Positions 5,162 through 27,630 are shown, counted from the stretch's first letter. The stretch is 39,702 bases of DNA from Candidatus Geocrenenecus huangii (GCA_023254095.1 JALNLM010000014.1:1-39702); one strand, 5' to 3'. Made by a program: numbers and translations. The notes: generated by a model not told the origin, from the letters alone.

Positions 5162-5467
5162 TGTATGGGTAAAACATCGTAAATATTAACATTCTCATAC
5201 ATGTATCGCGTCATTATTATGGATATATAGTTGGGAAGGAAGAAAATCTCAGTAAGATAATATGTTTATAACAGATATCGTCTTAGATGCGGAGGGAAAA
5301 CCATTGACTAAGGAATTTGAAGGTTTATGTACAAGGTGTAATGTATTCTAGGTAGAGATAACTAGGAATGCTGTAGAGGGACAGGTTCCGAGAAAACTTA
5401 AATTCATATTATCTAGTCTTCTTCTGTGAAGGTGCTCTATGATTACGCGTGTATGGCCAATCTATCT

Positions 5468-5548
5468 CCATTTTCATGGTCTCTATTTAAGTTGTGGCCC
5501 ATTTTTAGATAAGGCCTACCATTTTCAGTAACCTCTCCAGCTTATAAA
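5468..5548 (+). promoter_or_regulatory. Promoter of arCOG07300-polB2 with three CCATTTTYAK boxes and a TATA box
   Basis: CCATTTTCAT at 5468-5477, CCATTTTTAG at 5499-5508, CCATTTTCAG at 5519-5528, AACCTCTCC at 5530-5538, TTATAAA at 5542-5548; ATG at 5576. Confidence 0.55.
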
Positions 5549-5575: not shown

Positions 5576-5851
5576 ATGGGTAGAACTACGTTAACATATA
5601 GGCAGAGACTTGAGCTCGAGCTTGAACGTTGGAGAATGTTTAGAAGAACTTTACTAAAGGATGAGAGAGAAGTATTTGATAGCTTAGTTGGTCACATATA
5701 CAGATACTCTCATGCAGCTTCAATGTATCCTGAAAGAGACGTATTTGATCTATTCATCATGTCTGGACTTCTATCTCATGAAGAGAGATTGAGGATCTTG
5801 GAGAGGGAATTGAGGCGGGAGATGAATATCGGTGCAAGGCTGGCTCCTTGA
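5576..5851 (+). CDS. Small helical PolB2-associated protein (arCOG07300-like)
   Basis: MGRT..YR...E..RW..FRR.L...ERE.FD pattern; lies directly upstream of and overlaps polB2. Confidence 0.75.
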   Translation: MGRTTLTYRQRLELELERWRMFRRTLLKDEREVFDSLVGHIYRYSHAASMYPERDVFDLFIMSGLLSHEERLRILERELRREMNIGARLAP

Positions 5852-8018
5852 CATACATCCTATAAGTAGAGATGAAGTCTGCGTATGGATAAAGAGAAAA
5901 GATGGAAGAGTAGAGTTAGAGAAGATTAAATGGATGCCTAAAATCTATGTTGTAGGACCGTTCGACAAGCTTGTCCAACTTAGCCAGATACTTTCAAGCA
6001 AGTATGATTTAGAATTTGTTGAGAAACATATCTACGCAGGAGGCTCTCTGGAAACAGTACTAGAAGTCAAGATACCTTTTGGAGAGAGAAAGAAGATAGC
6101 TAAAGAAGTCCTAGACATCGGTAATCACATATTCTATAGAGTATTCAACGTAGATTTACCATCTATGCAGGAATTCTTGTATCACCATAATCTTTATCCT
6201 ACCGCATACATAGACTATTCAAATAATAACTTCAAAATATTAGATGATGTTGGAGACCTCGATTATGATACATCGTGGATTAAGATAGCATACCTCGATG
6301 CCAAGATAGCTTCTAACAGTATTCTACCATCCCTCCAAGATAAGCTTACCGAGCTATCATTGAAGATTCAAGATGAAGAAATAATATTGGATTTTTCAGA
6401 AGAATTCATACTTGAAGAACTATCCAAAATACTAGATTCCCTAGATGTAGACATAATTGTAACTGAATGTGGAGATTCATTCCTCATGCCCTACCTCCAT
6501 CATAGAGCTAGAGTAAATAATGTTAAGCTAAGGCTTGGTAGATTAGACCATGAACCTAGGTTAGAGATATCATCTAGATCCTACTTTAGCTATGGTAGAG
6601 TATGTCATAAGTTTAGAGGATTTAAGCTTAGAGGTAGAATACATGTAGACTCATCTAATTCGATGCTCTATCAGGAAACAGGCATAGATGGAGTATTGGA
6701 GATCTCTAGAGTATGTAGGATACCTATTCAAGATGCTTCAAGATATACTATCGGTTCATGCATGTCGTCCCTCCAGTATTATGAAGCCTACAAGCTTGGA
6801 ATACTTCTACCGTGGATTCCATGTAGGGAAAACTACATGAATGGAAGACAGCTCAACATAGCTGACAGGGGAGGATTAATACTTGACGCTAAGCCCGAAA
6901 TATTCTGGAATGTTGGGGAAATAGATTTCAAAAGTCTTTACCCGATGTTAATGTATAGATACAATATTTCGGGAGAAACAATCAATTGCGAATGCTGTAG
7001 ATACGAGAAGATAGAAATACCTGAAGTCGGATACCATGTTTGTAGAAGATGGAGAGGGGTTGTTCCAAGAGCCATAGAGTTACCATTGAAGAAACGACTA
7101 CAATATAAGAAGTTATCGGAAGAAGTAGGAAAATCTTATTTGAGACAAATATATGGTAGGAGAGCCGATGCACTGAAGTGGATTCTAGTAACTGCTTTCG
7201 GATATCTAGGTTTTAAGAAAGCAAAGTTCGGGTCAAGAGAAGCCCATCTAGCTGTATGTGCATTAGCTAGAGATACGCTGATAAAAACTATAAGGATTGC
7301 TGAAGAATCAGGGTTTAGAGTAGTTCATGGATTGGTTGACTCACTCTGGATAGTTAAAGAAGATGCTGAAGATGAAGACTACGTGAAGCTGATCGAAAAA
7401 ATAGAAGATAAACTTAAGTTACCCGTAAGCTATGAGGGAAGATATAAATGGATAATCTTTCTGAAATCTAAGATAAACCCATTCAAGCCTGTCAATAATA
7501 GGTATTTTGGAGTATTACTCGACGGTAGAATAAAGTATAGAGGAATAGAGGCTAGGAGAAGAGACGCCCCACTTATAGTTAAGAAAATGCAGTTACAGAT
7601 GCTGGAGAGGCTATCCAAAGCAAACACGTTGAGAGAACTTAGAGAGAAAGCTTTAGAGTGCTTGGAGATCTATAGAGAATACGCTAAGAAGATAGTATTA
7701 GGTGAAGCACATGTAGATGATTTAATCATTACGAAAAGCCTAAGCAAGCATATAAGAGAATACATAAACAAAGTACTACATGTTACTGTAGCCAGAAAAC
7801 TTGAATCACTAGGGTATGTGATAGAACCAGGTCAACCGATAAGATACGTAGTAACCGGTGGGAAGTGTGTTGACGCAAGTCTTCCACAATCCTGCGAAGT
7901 GGGAGAATACAATAGTAGAGAGTACTTGAAGATCCTTGAGGGGGCTGCAGAGACAATACTTGAGCCAATAATCGGTCAAGAAAAAATATATTACATAACG
8001 TCAAAAATAATAGATTAA
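5832..8018 (+). CDS. polB2: Family B DNA polymerase, PolB2 (Dpo2) group
   Basis: DFKSLYP (motif A), LKWILVTAFGYLG (motif B), HGLVDSLW in place of YGDTDS, ETINCECC, YRGIEARRRD; degenerate exonuclease motifs. Confidence 0.9.
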   Translation: MQGWLLDIHPISRDEVCVWIKRKDGRVELEKIKWMPKIYVVGPFDKLVQLSQILSSKYDLEFVEKHIYAGGSLETVLEVKIPFGERKKIAKEVLDIGNHIFYRVFNVDLPSMQEFLYHHNLYPTAYIDYSNNNFKILDDVGDLDYDTSWIKIAYLDAKIASNSILPSLQDKLTELSLKIQDEEIILDFSEEFILEELSKILDSLDVDIIVTECGDSFLMPYLHHRARVNNVKLRLGRLDHEPRLEISSRSYFSYGRVCHKFRGFKLRGRIHVDSSNSMLYQETGIDGVLEISRVCRIPIQDASRYTIGSCMSSLQYYEAYKLGILLPWIPCRENYMNGRQLNIADRGGLILDAKPEIFWNVGEIDFKSLYPMLMYRYNISGETINCECCRYEKIEIPEVGYHVCRRWRGVVPRAIELPLKKRLQYKKLSEEVGKSYLRQIYGRRADALKWILVTAFGYLGFKKAKFGSREAHLAVCALARDTLIKTIRIAEESGFRVVHGLVDSLWIVKEDAEDEDYVKLIEKIEDKLKLPVSYEGRYKWIIFLKSKINPFKPVNNRYFGVLLDGRIKYRGIEARRRDAPLIVKKMQLQMLERLSKANTLRELREKALECLEIYREYAKKIVLGEAHVDDLIITKSLSKHIREYINKVLHVTVARKLESLGYVIEPGQPIRYVVTGGKCVDASLPQSCEVGEYNSREYLKILEGAAETILEPIIGQEKIYYITSKIID

Positions 8019-10750: not shown

Positions 10751-11216
10751 TTTGTTAGACCTCTCTCCCTAACTTCTTCGACTACCACAGTAGAATTGAT
10801 CTAGCCTATTAATAAAAGGTTTACACTTAGCCAAAAGTGCATCATGACTTGAATATGAGAACACCAAATAGGAAAAAGATATGAAAATACCATATCTTGA
10901 ATCTCTAAATTTCTAGTGTCGAATTGGAAGGAAAGACATGGAACTCAGAATGGTTTCTGATCTGGCTATATTCCATCTTTTAAATATCGGAATGGCCAAA
11001 GAAGTCCTATGAATAATTGATGAAGATGTGGCTCCGAACATGTTTCTCCAATTTTTTGGTGTGGCCATACTCGCCTCGGTAAGAATCCTAATATTTAAAA
11101 AAGGTTAATAACCAATAATCGGTCGAGAATAATTACAAGTAAATCTAGTCCTCTAGGAGAAGCTTTTGTTAACCGTTATATTTAATTCATGCATTCATAC
11201 CGATTTCTAATAGGAG

Positions 11217-22573: not shown

Positions 22574-24535
22574 TTAATGCTTGGTGATCGAGCCACGTCC
22601 ATAAGGGATGATCTTCATTATATCCTCGATTAATTCTTTCTTCTTCCTATCTTCAACTTCTCCGAAGATACGTTTAATTACTTCTTCAGCCAATTCTTTT
22701 GCTCTCTCTTTACCTGGAGTTATCTTAATTATTCTTGTAGTCCTCCCTTCAAGAGTTTGAGATGGCCCCCATACTAGCCTACTATCTTCTACTCCGATAG
22801 CTATCTCAAGCTTAACGGTTACATACTTCTTCTCCCCCTTTATGATCACTCCTCCTTTAGGTACGTAATGTCCCGGAGGCGGCGAGAAGGATAATTGGTC
22901 AGGTTTCACATAGTAGACACTAATATATTGTAACCCTTCTTTCCATGCTCGACTATAGCATGCAGCAAATTGCGCTGCTTCCAATATCGATCTCTCAGTA
23001 GAGTCGGCTCCTTTCTTTAAGATTAAGATTGGCGCTCCTCTAACTTCTGAGTGGAAGACTAAATCTTCTTTTTCTAGATGTCTCCGTAATAGTGCGTGAT
23101 TGCTGGAGACGTCTTTCCCCGCAACGGCTAGAAAGCCTTCGGAAGTATAGAACCACCTATACTTTTCATACCAATTCATCTTACCACGCGTAATCTTAGC
23201 AGATATAGTCTCCAACTTCTCAACAACTAAGTGCTCCCTCCTATTCAACAGCTTCTTTATCTTTTCACCAATCTCGTCAGCTTCCCTCTTTAATTCATCA
23301 ATACGGGAATCTATATTTTTAGCCTCATCAAATATTCTCGATGCCTGTTTTGCAATCGATTCATTAAGGGTCAGCTGGACTTCTCCATAAGATGAAGATA
23401 TCGAGATTTTTCTACTAAATTTGTCAACTCTCACCATTAGCTCATCTATCCTCACTTCTCCAGGTGGTTCAGCGTATCTCAGCTTCTCGATCTCGCTCGA
23501 GTAGGTGAGTATAAACTTGGCCAAACTTCTCTTCTGGCTTGATAACGCTTTCAGTTTTTCCAATGTTTTATGCTTATTCTCAAGTTCCTCGTTCAGTGAC
23601 TTGATCTCTTTTTCTATCTTCTCTAGTGTTTCTCGTGCAGCCTCGTATGTTAGATTCTTTTCATAAGCTATTCTTACAGCCTCGTTGAAACTGGATGCCT
23701 GAATCACTTTTAGATCACGTAGCTTTAGAGATTCAGGCAAGTATGGTAGAGGATAGACTTCAAGTTTAGATTCTACGATGACTGGTTTACCGGTTTCAAT
23801 CTCTTCGAGAACTCTCATAATCGCTTTTCTAATTTTTTCATACTCACCTATCGATATCTCTGAGAATTTCTTACTCTTCTCTACGCCCGCTATATAGGCT
23901 ACTTCTTCAGCGTATCTTCCACCTAGACCCGCCTCGATGGCCAACGCTGAAACTATCTTCCTGTTCTTGTCTATCGATTCTAGTACTTGCTCTACATCTT
24001 GAGTACTCGTGATAATGCGTCTTCGAGGCGGAGGCTTGTACTCTTTTCCCACAATGATCTCCCTATCCTTCATTAATAGTTTTTCCAAACATTCAAGGAT
24101 CCTCCCAGAGCTATCTGTTACTATCAACGTGCCTTTTGGCAAGAATTCAATTATTAAATTCAATCTTTCAGCATAGGGTCTCTGCAATTCAAAGATAACT
24201 ATTCTCTCGCCTTCTAGTAATTCTACTTTTACTATTATCGAGTTGTTCAATATCTTTCTGAGCTTAGTTATTGTTTCTGAAGGCTTTGGAGGTTTCTGGT
24301 ATTCACCTCTAACCAAGAACATGCATCTACCCGGAGAAATCCTCAATTCGTATCTATCATTATCCTTCTTAAGCTTCAGGATGATCGAGCCATCATCCAT
24401 GCTGTAAACGTTTTCAATTCTGCTATCCACCAATTCATCACTGATCTCTTTCATCAATCTCTTGAACTCGAAAAAGGAAAGCTCCATCTTCTTCACCAAT
24501 CTTGAGTGGGGACGCTCACTATCTCTTATGAACAA
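22574..24535 (-). CDS. rqcH: Ribosome quality control protein RqcH/Rqc2 (NFACT family); true start probably 24487-24499
   Basis: ERIVIF, IIEF...G.LI.TD, HhH segment GLGG.YAEE, coiled coil, WYEKYRWF.TSEG, AA.FAA.YSRAWK. Confidence 0.88.
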   Translation of the reverse strand: MFIRDSERPHSRLVKKMELSFFEFKRLMKEISDELVDSRIENVYSMDDGSIILKLKKDNDRYELRISPGRCMFLVRGEYQKPPKPSETITKLRKILNNSIIVKVELLEGERIVIFELQRPYAERLNLIIEFLPKGTLIVTDSSGRILECLEKLLMKDREIIVGKEYKPPPRRRIITSTQDVEQVLESIDKNRKIVSALAIEAGLGGRYAEEVAYIAGVEKSKKFSEISIGEYEKIRKAIMRVLEEIETGKPVIVESKLEVYPLPYLPESLKLRDLKVIQASSFNEAVRIAYEKNLTYEAARETLEKIEKEIKSLNEELENKHKTLEKLKALSSQKRSLAKFILTYSSEIEKLRYAEPPGEVRIDELMVRVDKFSRKISISSSYGEVQLTLNESIAKQASRIFDEAKNIDSRIDELKREADEIGEKIKKLLNRREHLVVEKLETISAKITRGKMNWYEKYRWFYTSEGFLAVAGKDVSSNHALLRRHLEKEDLVFHSEVRGAPILILKKGADSTERSILEAAQFAACYSRAWKEGLQYISVYYVKPDQLSFSPPPGHYVPKGGVIIKGEKKYVTVKLEIAIGVEDSRLVWGPSQTLEGRTTRIIKITPGKERAKELAEEVIKRIFGEVEDRKKKELIEDIMKIIPYGRGSITKH

Positions 24536-25029: not shown

Positions 25030-25455
25030 CTATTCTGATTCTTCTTCCTCTAGTTCTCTAAATGATTCTATCTGTTCAGGGGATTCTTCTGGTTTAGACT
25101 CTTTCTTTTCAATCTTATGAGGTGTAGGCAGTTTGTCCATAATATTGACTAGATCGAGCCATGTCTGTAGAAATTCCCTCGGAGGATTATACGATTCCTC
25201 CAGCAATTTCTTCATCTCGTTTTTTAATGTCTCCCTATCTACGCCATCTAAGTATCGCTCCCACAGTTTGAAGATGTAGGAGTCCCTATCATCGTTAACG
25301 TAGGAGTAGTATATTCCGTATAGTGCTTTATAATATGGATTGTGGTCTCCAATCTTCTTCCTAATATACTCTAGGCTTTTCTCAGATTCGCTTATCTTCC
25401 CACTGAAAAGGAGTGCATAGAATTTCCTGACCGACTTTATAGGCATCTCGCTCAT
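25030..25455 (-). CDS. Hypothetical protein translationally coupled to radA
   Basis: 141-aa ORF whose ATG overlaps the radA stop (ATGA); predicted helical with an acidic tail. Confidence 0.75.
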
Positions 25456-27563
25456 GCTTGTTCCTCCTCTAAGTCTTCTACTCCATTCTCTGTTATCTTA
25501 AATATTGCTTCTCCCTCTGGGAGATACGGGCTAGATACTAGTCTAGCTATACGAGTATTCTTTCCAGCTGCTTTTCTAAGATATACTCGTGTATGGCTTG
25601 TGTGTCCAACTATGTGTCCTCCTACCGGTAGAACAGCCATGGCGCTAAAGTATTCATCTGGTCTAGCCATAACCTGGTTCGTGACTACTGCCGCTGCATT
25701 GAAGGCTCTTGCAAGTCTAAGAAGCTTATGCATATGTTTATTCAATTTCTGCTGACGCTCCGGAAGGCTCTGCCTACCCACGTACTCGCTTCTAAAATGT
25801 GCTGTCAATGAATCGATAATGATTAAACGTATATTGTTTTCTTTTATTACTTTGTCAGCTTTCTCTAATAGGAGTATCTGATGGTCACTGTTATAAGCTT
25901 CTGCGTATATTATTTTTTCAACTACTTGGTCTGGGTCTAGTCCTAGGAACTTAGCCATTTGAACTATTCTCTCTATTCTGAAAGTATTCTCTGTATCTAT
26001 GTATAGTGCTCCTCCATTCAACCCTCCACGTTCTGGCGGGAGCTGGACGTTAACCGCTAGTTGATGACATATCTGGCTATTGTGGAATATCGTAGGCATA
26101 TTCCCCCCTATGAAATTCTCTGTCTCCGGCACATTAAAGTCGTATACGTAATCATTGTATAGCTCGTAAGAAATCTCTGTTACGAAATCCCATGAAAGCT
26201 GTTTTATCATCGCTAGTCTTCTAATCGCTTCATCGATTTTCCTTATTCCCTCATTTATCTCCATGCTTGATGTCTTCTGATGTTTGATCTTAAATGGAAG
26301 TGAATAGAATAGTTTCGTATTTTCTCCGGTTACGTAGACTTCATAGTATTTCTCTTCTTTGACCTTCTTTTCTTTAATGATGGTGTTAATGCCCAGCTTA
26401 GATAAGAGATATGACATACTTAGTGCGAGGATAGGATTCTTAGTGTATGTTATGATTCCTCTAGACGGCGTATACCCATTGGCATCTATGTATCCAGCTA
26501 GAAATTGACGGATTACATTTCTCGAGCTATTGAATAGAGTCTCCGGAATAGATTTTTCTTTATCATTATCGATCTTTACAACTCTTTCTAGAAATTCCTT
26601 TACGGATTCTCCTAACAATATCTTGAAAAGTCCAGCTCGTCTCTCAATTTCGGGAGTGATGTCGAACTTCTTCTCAATATAATGCTCAACCCAATTTTTC
26701 AGAGTTTCATTATTAACAATTACGGAAGAGGGGCTAGATTCCCCAGCAGCTATGAATAATCCCGTAAAATAAGCATCATCAAGGCTTAAGCAATCTTCAG
26801 ATTCTTCTATAGCTAGTATAGATGGGGCAGCTATCGGTGTCCCATGCTTAATCTCTCTAGCATCTACCCACGTTATTTCACCTTTCTCGTTTATTGAGAG
26901 GAATTTATGTGTTGGAGTAACTTTGAGCTCTCGCCCATTCTCAGTCTTTATTACTATAAGCTTATCCGTCCATTCTCTATACATGAATGCTGCTTCAACA
27001 GGCTTAATCCCGTCGCCTATAAAGGACAAGACTCTAACGCCGTTGAGAGGAATTATGAATCCCCGTCCATAAGGTAGTTCCCCATACATTGATCTATATT
27101 TTTCATAGATGGATTCTATCGGTTCTAGGTGGAGCTTAGTAGGGTTTAGATACATCACATACGTTCCTCTTGCAACGCATTTTCCTGAACCATACTCTCC
27201 GAAGAATTCTGTAATCGTCTGCGTCTCTACTCCTCCACCGATTAGTTTATCAAGTGTCTTACTCCCAGTCGTTATTCTGCCAACAGTCTTTTTTAATTCT
27301 GCAAGGTCCTTAGCAGTTACCCAACTTATCTCTATGGCCTGCCTGGCCGCAGCTATTATTTCTGCTGCTCTTTTCTCACTTATACCCGCTGCCGCCAATT
27401 CAGCAATAGTCGCTGTAGCTAGAGACTCTATTGTTGAGAAACCTATTTCTCTAAGCTTAGCTGCGGTTGCGTTACCTACTGAGGGGAGGTCTTCTATCTT
27501 TAAGTATACTTTTCTCTCTTCTTTCTGTTCTACAGGTTCTGTTTTCTTCTCTTTGGGAGACAT
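25452..27563 (-). CDS. radA: DNA repair and recombination protein RadA, intein-containing
   Basis: N-terminal Hh[20 protein letters not shown]|S Walker A split by an intein, [33 protein letters not shown] and GGHIVGH. Confidence 0.97.
26079..27179 (-). mobile_element. Intein (367 aa) in the RadA P-loop with a degenerate LAGLIDADG domain
   Basis: Starts at Cys (GSGK|CVARGT), block B VTPTHKF, block F YVYDFNV, ends IFHN|S; endonuclease-like blocks [11 protein letters not shown] and [10 protein letters not shown]. Confidence 0.95.
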
Positions 27564-27594: not shown

Positions 27595-27630
27595 TATTTA
27601 AGGAGAGGGTTGAGGGGGAGCTGAAAATGG
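27595..27630 (-). promoter_or_regulatory. radA promoter with a CCATTTTCAG box
   Basis: Minus strand: CCATTTTCAG (27630-27621), AACCCTCTCC (27611-27602), TTAAATA (27601-27595); ATG at 27563. Confidence 0.55.

Follow-up and report, generated by a model that had tools for sequence, protein, structure and literature searches.

The window, by which we mean the whole 39,702-nt stretch of DNA analyzed here, belongs to the genome of Candidatus Geocrenenecus huangii (G000; 1,609,249 bases, 40.7% G+C), a member of the Aigarchaeota (Caldarchaeales) and not a Sulfolobus relative, in the family Wolframiiraptoraceae, whose genera are designated g1 to g5, g1 being that of the host. Two transcription units of this window are considered. 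On the plus strand, the polB2 operon (5576-8018) consists of a 91-aa ORF (5576-5851) and a gene for a 728-aa family-B polymerase (Pfam; 5832-8018), the start of which is overlapped by the small ORF; the latter is kept in relatives. On the minus strand, radA (25452-27563) encodes 703 aa including an intein with a LAGLIDADG endonuclease domain (Pfam; Rad51, 5e-82). The nearest public polB2 loci, at 80% identity, are titled Candidatus Geocrenenecus, and more distant ones Wolframiiraptor, Caldarchaeum and Calditenuis.

Both genes show some peculiarities. The PolB2 group to which the polymerase (5832-8018, +) belongs has HGIVDS as motif C in the alignment consensus, so that one of the two usual aspartates is left, and relatives at 33-38% identity are also present on contigs titled as bacterial MAGs, e.g. 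Nitrospirota and Acidobacteria. The open frame at radA measures about 340 aa (no intein), 748, 853, 1280 or 1789 aa in relatives, and the longest of these suggest more than one insertion or read-through into neighboring sequence. Furthermore, in three genomes of another family a RadA paralog (44-46% identity, N-terminal part) adjoins a distant PolB2-like gene (28-30%), in what looks like a recombinase-polymerase gene pair (G022:C15:53922-58016, G019:C1:491164-495278 and G025:C16:38542-42653). As for transcription of radA in situ, metatranscriptome contigs and eight reads were found, all on the coding part of radA, and no reads of the radA locus were present in two other raw-read metatranscriptomes.

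The promoters of polB2 and radA

The exact 10-mer CCATTTTCAG occurs at two sites in the window, 5519-5528 (+) and 27621-27630 (-). The polB2 promoter reads CCATTTTCAG-t-AACCTCTCC-agc-TTATAAA, its TATA box, assigned from the sequence and the alignment, being located at 5542-5548 (+) and the ATG of the 91-aa ORF at 5576. The radA promoter reads CCATTTTCAG-ctccccctc-AACCCTCTCC-TTAAATA, with its TATA box at 27595-27601 (-) and the ATG at 27563. These strings, in which the 10-mer stands before the TATA box of both units, and the spacers of 13 nt in polB2 and 19 nt in radA that separate the 10-mer from the TATA box, had been given in a preliminary description of this DNA and were all recovered on re-reading the sequence.

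In the polB2 promoter, the 10-mer is followed by the pentamer TCTCC (5534-5538, +), located 5 nt past the first motif and 3 nt before the TATA box, a spacing that is shared with the gins23-mcm and crenactin-operon promoters described below and with the polB2 promoters of Caldarchaeum. The architecture common to them is CCAYTTTCRG-N5-TCTC-N3-TATA, i.e. (C)CA-N-TTTC-R-G, five bases, TCTC, three bases and the TATA box. As judged from these sequences, the element is an upstream promoter element of roughly 20 bp, non-palindromic, of which the 10-mer is the first half.

The radA promoter deviates from this architecture in that the first half (27621-27630, -), where ANTTTC is realized as ATTTTC, lies 6 nt farther from the TATA box; measured from the C of the hexamer to the first T of TATA, the distance is 21 nt in radA and 15 nt in the polB2, gins and crenactin-operon promoters. 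The preliminary description had placed a near-identical second box of radA at AACCCTCTCC and had the spacer vary between the two promoters. However, AACCCTCTCC (27602-27611, -), which abuts the TATA box at the position of the BRE, turned out to be just a C/T-rich stretch weakly conserved among relatives, and the candidate second half is instead CCTCA (27615-27611, -), read from the sequence. Since CCTCA sits at the canonical N5 spacing, and relatives have CCTCA, TCTCA, CCTCT or TCTAG at this place, radA is better read as carrying the same element shifted 6 nt upstream as a whole than as having an elastic internal spacer.

Conservation in orthologous promoters

Conservation at polB2 was studied in an alignment of 10 upstream regions from Wolframiiraptoraceae and in an order-level set in which 29 aigarchaeal-type loci (L069-L097) were compared with 51 further loci (L098-L148), the latter mostly titled as Nitrosopumilaceae, Nitrososphaeraceae or bacterial MAGs, along with a small number of aigarchaeal loci that are truncated or divergent. 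Within the family, where the first half is conserved, CA(T/C)TTTC is in place in seven of the 10 aligned regions, two have one-base variants and in the remaining one it is found about 20 nt farther upstream; a CTC/TCC block follows the first half, 3-4 nt before the TATA box. In Caldarchaeum and other Caldarchaeales the first half takes the form CA[TC]TTTCR, and in the Caldarchaeum promoters, GCATTTTCG-c-GATGC-TCTC-tca-TGATTTAT, both the internal spacing and the TATA distance equal those of the host. The pattern CANTTTCR-N7-CTC was present shortly upstream of the polB2 gene start in 18 of the 29 aigarchaeal-type loci versus none of the 51 further loci, the absence from the thaumarchaeal loci being confounded with phylogeny. 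The 11 non-matching aigarchaeal-type loci, all of which were inspected save L092, mostly have near-variants, and one titled HR01 shows none. The element is also kept at polB2 in high-G+C lineages. Altogether, polB2 is a predicted target conserved across the whole order Caldarchaeales.

Other sequences upstream of polB2 were also noted. A word search detected two more motif-like copies on the plus strand between 5468 and 5508, namely CCATTTTCAT (5468-5477) and CCATTTTTAG (5499-5508); the copy at 5499, as CCCATTTTTAGATAAG, is kept in five of the 10 aligned promoters and that at 5468 in two. The box ATGGCCAA (5453-5460, +) precedes the polB2 element by about 65 nt; its TGGCCAA is invariant in all 10 aligned upstream regions and is also present in two Calditenuis loci. 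Further copies of (A)TGGCCAA are located at 10992-10999 (+) and 23937-23944 (+), one copy lies in the intergenic region between RNR and a Trp-Tyr-type tRNA synthetase gene, and the genome contains 32 copies versus 17 for a control. That this box might be a conserved small ORF was ruled out.

At radA, 30 promoters were compared (G000 and 29 relatives). The first half is present in 12 of them, from three genera (seven of seven in g1, three of three in g3 and two of two in g5), as C(C/G)CA-N-TTTC-(A/G) or CCTAGTTTCAG, 19-21 nt before TTAAATA, which is the same in all 12 promoters. Variation of the site is confined to one position (ATTTTC, ACTTTC or AGTTTC), and the element persists even where the upstream neighbor is a tRNA gene. 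No match was found in the other 18 promoters, which belong to g2, g4 and three other families. The preliminary description had linked radA and polB2 through this motif and had named conservation in orthologous promoters as the test of the link; such conservation was found in both cases, across the order for polB2 and in the three genera for radA, so that the two genes do share a conserved cis-element.

Genome-wide occurrence and additional promoters

The exact 10-mer has five copies in the genome when about 3.7 are expected from base composition; therefore, the word alone is not over-represented, although three of the five sit just upstream of a TATA box. In the window, there were six matches with at most one mismatch against a mean of 2.96 in shuffled sequences, and five of 100 shuffles reached six. 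For the genome word scans, gene starts were taken from a crude ORF call (1667 ORFs). CCA.TTTC, with 171 copies genome-wide, had 11 in sense orientation no more than 120 nt before one of the 1648 crude ORF starts, where about 10.5 are expected given the area searched, and hence showed no enrichment, and relaxed bipartite patterns were equally unenriched versus their controls (8 vs 15, 19 vs 23 and 4 vs 4). The full pattern CAYTTTCRGNNNNNTCTC gave four matches in G000 versus one for the backward-read control, and 26 versus two in eight genomes of the genus, 16 of the 26 being promoters of gins (five), the crenactin operon (eight) and polB2 (three); these counts are descriptive and do not amount to a test, since the pattern was derived from the same sites and the relatives are not independent. 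What stands above chance is the place of the element and the fact that orthologous promoters keep it even though the sequence on either side drifts.

The ORF call and word scans identified a site at G000:C17:183884, CCATTTTCAG-cgtgg-TCTCC-aag-AAATATAT, in front of an operon that encodes a 170-aa protein, crenactin (4CJ7, E 1e-118) and a product with a weak match to arcadin-2. All eight genus genomes have CCA(T/C)TTTC(A/G)G-N5-TCTC(C/A) before AATATAT at this operon; outside the genus, the relaxed pattern was found there in a single g3 genome and a single g5 genome and was absent in two g2 genomes. The operon spans G000:C17:183946-186400, its first gene apparently starts with TTG, and the 170-aa product has no Pfam or NCBIfam family and only weak structure matches in the protein atlas. 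A pattern search detected a second site at G000:C13:72029 (-), TTCATTTTCAG-cgtac-TCTCT-ctt-AGATAAAT, preceding gins23 and then mcm. At this promoter CA(T/C)TTT is present in 13 of 13 family genomes, representing all five genera, and the full ANTTTC in 12; two genomes of another family have a similar arrangement, as judged by eye. In several relatives the crenactin operon, the orc1-2-type gene described below and gins23-mcm are on one contig, within about 10-45 kb.

The predicted regulon visible here is small, with four transcription units: polB2, radA, gins23-mcm and the crenactin operon.

Several other matches were discarded. Seven one-mismatch matches in G000 have no TATA box after them and look like coding sequence, and of four other exact matches, those at G007:C34 and G005:C12 lie inside ORFs. 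The exact match at G000:C32 likewise has no TATA box after it and was taken for repeated, probably coding sequence because near-identical words are found on small G002 contigs and in G006, even though no ORF of at least 50 aa was listed over the site. The corresponding motif-like word CAYTTTCAGGRTARTCTC recurs on small contigs or contig ends of several genus genomes (G000:C32:2148-2165 (-); G002:C68, C99 and C131; G006:C79), in a sequence that looks repeated, probably coding and possibly mobile. Besides, a copy of CCATTTTCAT that precedes an E1-like/ubiquitin fusion gene on G000:C20 by 65 nt was found in only one of eight relatives and was attributed to chance. This gene (G000:C20:17544-19070) encodes a ThiF/E1-like enzyme with a fused ubiquitin-like domain and is followed by that of an 86-aa RING-finger protein, a eukaryote-like ubiquitin module. 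The element is absent from the RNR promoter and from the upstream region of orc1-1.

Orc1/Cdc6 paralogs

The G000 genome encodes two Orc1/Cdc6 proteins, one on C11 and the other on C17 (G000:C17:195157-196323), whose best NCBIfam models differ. Against PDB chains, the C11 gene product scored 370 bits with the initiator Sso Cdc6-1, 348 with the initiator Ape ORC1, 100 with 1FNN and 84 with 1W5S, and the C17 product 166, 154, 165 and 117, respectively. 1W5S has been called an Orc1-2 homolog (PMC12490963). As for their distribution, Thermoproteales, the source of 1FNN, have been described to keep only Orc1-2, Aigarchaeota to have it and Thaumarchaeota to have lost it (PMC3914693). These score ratios, together with the literature, make the C17 paralog a candidate member of the Orc1-2 class. 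All 21 genomes examined from the order encode both paralogs, and in relatives the orc1-2-type gene is often located within a few kb of gins-mcm. Its own promoter has ANTTTC before the TATA box in four of five genomes outside the genus (g2-g5); within g1 the hexamer is found only in G000 out of seven genomes, where it abuts the TATA box, and is not conserved. The loss of Orc1-2 in Thaumarchaeota matches the absence of the polB2 element from thaumarchaeal loci, a correlation confounded by descent.

Discussion

The element described here resembles one known from Sulfolobales. In Sulfolobus, a 5'-A(N)TTTC-3' hexamer located upstream of the BRE/TATA has been reported as essential for the induction of UV-inducible promoters, and in S. 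acidocaldarius it occupies about -44 to -39 relative to the start of transcription, abutting the BRE (PMC5817253). Orc1-2, a non-initiator Orc1/Cdc6 paralog, footprints on this hexamer, known as the DNA-damage-responsive element (DDRE), in Sulfolobus, induction by NQO was abolished by mutation of the hexamer or deletion of orc1-2, and MEME analysis of 21 induced S. islandicus promoters returned the 20-mer consensus AATAGTTTCRGWDTACTCWS (PMC6061795). The same report describes S. islandicus Dpo2 as two adjacent genes whose expression is Orc1-2-dependent and TFB3-independent, lists recombination-repair genes in the activated set, and has replication-initiation and division genes repressed, not activated, in the damage response (PMC6061795). 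According to the Orc1-2 literature, the promoter of Sulfolobus orc1-2 itself carries the element, and the initiator-specific motif (ISM) of the protein is needed for specific binding, its contact on the DNA being stated there as unknown, which leaves room for a second half-site, for which the aigarchaeal TCTC/GAGA half is a candidate. The authors of those studies left open whether Orc1-2 does the same job outside Sulfolobales.

The likeness between the DDRE/Orc1-2 regulon (PMC6061795, PMC5817253, PMC9738581, PMC12490963), as presented in the portions of these reports used here, and the aigarchaeal element concerns the site, the targets and a candidate regulator. The same non-palindromic ANTTTC is found, in sense orientation and upstream of the BRE/TATA, and variation among orthologous sites at radA, polB2, the crenactin operon and gins falls on its N (ATTTTC, ACTTTC, AGTTTC). 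In a by-eye comparison with the consensus as quoted, AATAGTTTCRGWDTACTCWS and CCATTTTCAGTAACCTCTCC are in register, ANTTTC being followed by R, G and then TC-W-S, spaced as TCTC is in the aigarchaeal element, so that compatibility extends over positions 4-11 and 17-20 at the polB2, gins and crenactin-operon promoters; a chance match of the six flanking consensus positions would occur at about 1e-3, as a rough estimate. In terms of site presence, and assuming orthology to Dpo2, the element fronts a two-ORF polB2 unit and radA, comparable to the Dpo2 and recombination targets in Sulfolobus, and a putative Orc1-2-class paralog is encoded in the genome. Several differences were also observed. The lineage is Caldarchaeales (Nitrososphaeria) instead of Sulfolobales, positions 1-3 of the consensus (5' AAT) are unmatched, with CC in the aigarchaeal element, the aigarchaeal sites lie about 6-12 nt farther upstream of the TATA box than the position quoted for Sulfolobus, and the second half (TCTC) is clearly conserved. 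In addition, gins23-mcm and the crenactin operon join the target set, neither of them being among the DDRE targets named in the cited parts of PMC6061795 and related reports.

Because of this fit to the DDRE core and to known targets, the element most likely does not represent an undescribed system, as which it had been put forward in the preliminary description; its core is the ANTTTC DDRE of the Sulfolobales Orc1-2 regulon (PMC6061795). Our literature search found no earlier report of the element in this aigarchaeal lineage. The link to DNA damage made in the preliminary description appears plausible. In line with its notion of an SOS-like repair regulon, radA and polB2 are both marked by the element, but the set is not purely one of repair genes, and since its best-conserved targets include gins23-mcm and the crenactin operon, “SOS-like” is only one reading. 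The bacterial SOS box is a palindromic operator for the self-cleaving repressor LexA and overlaps the promoter. The aigarchaeal element is similar to it as one short operator common to recombinase and translesion-polymerase genes, but it lacks dyad symmetry and its proposed reader would come from a different protein family.

Two other archaeal systems deserve comparison. Origin recognition boxes, as described for A. pernix ORC1-ORB4 and S. solfataricus Orc1-1/Orc1-3-oriC2 (PMC9738581), are bipartite, with the winged helix on one sub-site and the ISM on a second, G-rich one, and the complementary strand of the aigarchaeal second half reads GAGA. In contrast, they have a dyad-symmetric core and are located at origins, whereas the aigarchaeal element is asymmetric and located at promoters, and four arginines that contact the ORB are reported as missing from non-initiators (PMC9738581). 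The cell-cycle repressors aCcr1-3 of S. islandicus (PMC13199686) are comparable in that common regulators act on the promoters of gins and radA, so that genes of replication and of repair are tied to one programme. However, the aCcr box quoted there is a palindrome, A(T/G)G(A)TA(G)A(T/G)TACN (GTA..TAC), located between -50 and 0, unlike the non-palindromic element upstream of the TATA box described here. A “CCR box” of Sulfolobus cell-cycle promoters had no match in our literature search, and the term is not used here.

Taken together, the motif is real, looks functional and is conserved to considerable depth, and the most likely explanation of these results is a known system extended to a new lineage and to new targets (radA, gins23-mcm and the crenactin operon), in a clearly bipartite form. 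We give about even chances to the specific proposal that the element is the aigarchaeal counterpart of the Sulfolobales DDRE (ANTTTC) and would be read by the Orc1-2-class paralog. In such a mechanism, the second, non-initiator Orc1/Cdc6 paralog (Orc1-2 class, G000:C17:195157-196323) would contact ANTTTC through its winged helix and, about one helical turn away, the TCTC/GAGA half through its ISM; the protein, bound beside a weak, pyrimidine-rich BRE, might then help to recruit TFB and TBP, and in this way DNA damage or replication stress would be coupled to translesion synthesis and recombination as well as to the replicative helicase and the actin cytoskeleton. The element, its architecture and conservation, its target genes and the presence of the paralog are seen in the sequences, while the binder, the sign of regulation and the inducing signal, which may be damage, replication stress or cell-cycle phase, are inferred.

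The composition of the target set is also what speaks for a cell-cycle (S-phase) promoter programme, in which some other transcription factor, or the Orc1 paralog acting independently of damage, would jointly activate genes of replication, recombination and the cytoskeleton, comparable to the common control of replication genes in eukaryotes. The most widely conserved target within the family is gins23-mcm (13/13), the crenactin operon belongs to the cytoskeleton, several relatives have the orc1-2-type gene no more than a few kb away from gins-mcm, and aCcr regulators are reported to bind the promoters of both gins and radA in S. islandicus (PMC13199686). Nevertheless, we consider this programme rather unlikely, given that the palindromic GTA..TAC box of those regulators, between -50 and 0, does not resemble the element, that the other replication genes examined (RNR and the orc1-1 upstream region) are devoid of it, and that polB2, the order-wide target, is described as a hallmark damage-induced gene in Sulfolobus (PMC6061795). 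Still less probable, in our view, is a damage-responsive regulon so far undescribed, with a regulator unrelated to Orc1-2 and a convergent ANTTTC. The different position relative to the TATA box, the 5' flank that departs from the published consensus and the lack of the element at the orc1-2-type promoter within the genus would all fit such a regulon, but against it stand the in-register agreement with the published core and extended consensus, the shared Dpo2/polB2 target and the occurrence of a putative Orc1-2-class gene in each of the 21 genomes of the order.

The geometry of the promoters bears on a further alternative, a variant core promoter in which one of two TFB paralogs would recognize a BRE of extended or alternative form. 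The genome does have two TFB genes, and in three of the four promoters TCTC is found 3 nt before the TATA box, i.e. at the position of the BRE. However, the first half lies 15-21 nt from the TATA box, out of reach of a BRE, and at radA it stands 6 nt off its usual distance to TATA and is yet conserved in three genera, a movement of which a BRE is incapable; a first half that is movable in this way argues against a BRE-type core signal and in favor of a separate DNA-binding factor, and this alternative appears very unlikely to us. Finally, two A/T-rich promoters might resemble each other by chance and without function, as the ordinary frequency of the 10-mer (five copies for about 3.7 expected) and the presence of roughly 40 promoters per window, among which some shared 10-mers are expected, would allow. 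We regard the probability of this as close to negligible: it is already contradicted by the conservation of the element, from genera up to the entire order, between flanks that have diverged, and the look-alike upstream of the E1-like gene is unconserved (1/8).

To our knowledge, the Orc1-2/DDRE system is the only worked-out archaeal DNA-damage regulatory circuit, and it is known from Sulfolobales alone. The DDRE-type element described here is kept throughout a whole other order, before the same hallmark target, polB2/Dpo2, and the counterpart proposed here yields a set of predictions, namely binding sites, a candidate ISM half-site, a candidate regulator gene and a short list of targets, for a lineage of which one member, Wolframiiraptor, is in culture (PMC9246946). 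It is tempting to go further and to speculate, tentatively and with more doubt than confidence, that Orc1-2/DDRE, instead of being particular to Sulfolobales, might go back to an ancient regulon of checkpoint type in the TACK archaea, with direct control of gins-mcm, the translesion polymerase, the recombinase and actin by the non-initiator Orc1 paralog, with TCTC/GAGA as the ISM contact and with the Ups/Ced/TFB3 layer as a later addition in Sulfolobus. The finding bears on how replication, repair and the cytoskeleton may be coupled in relatives of the eukaryotic ancestor.
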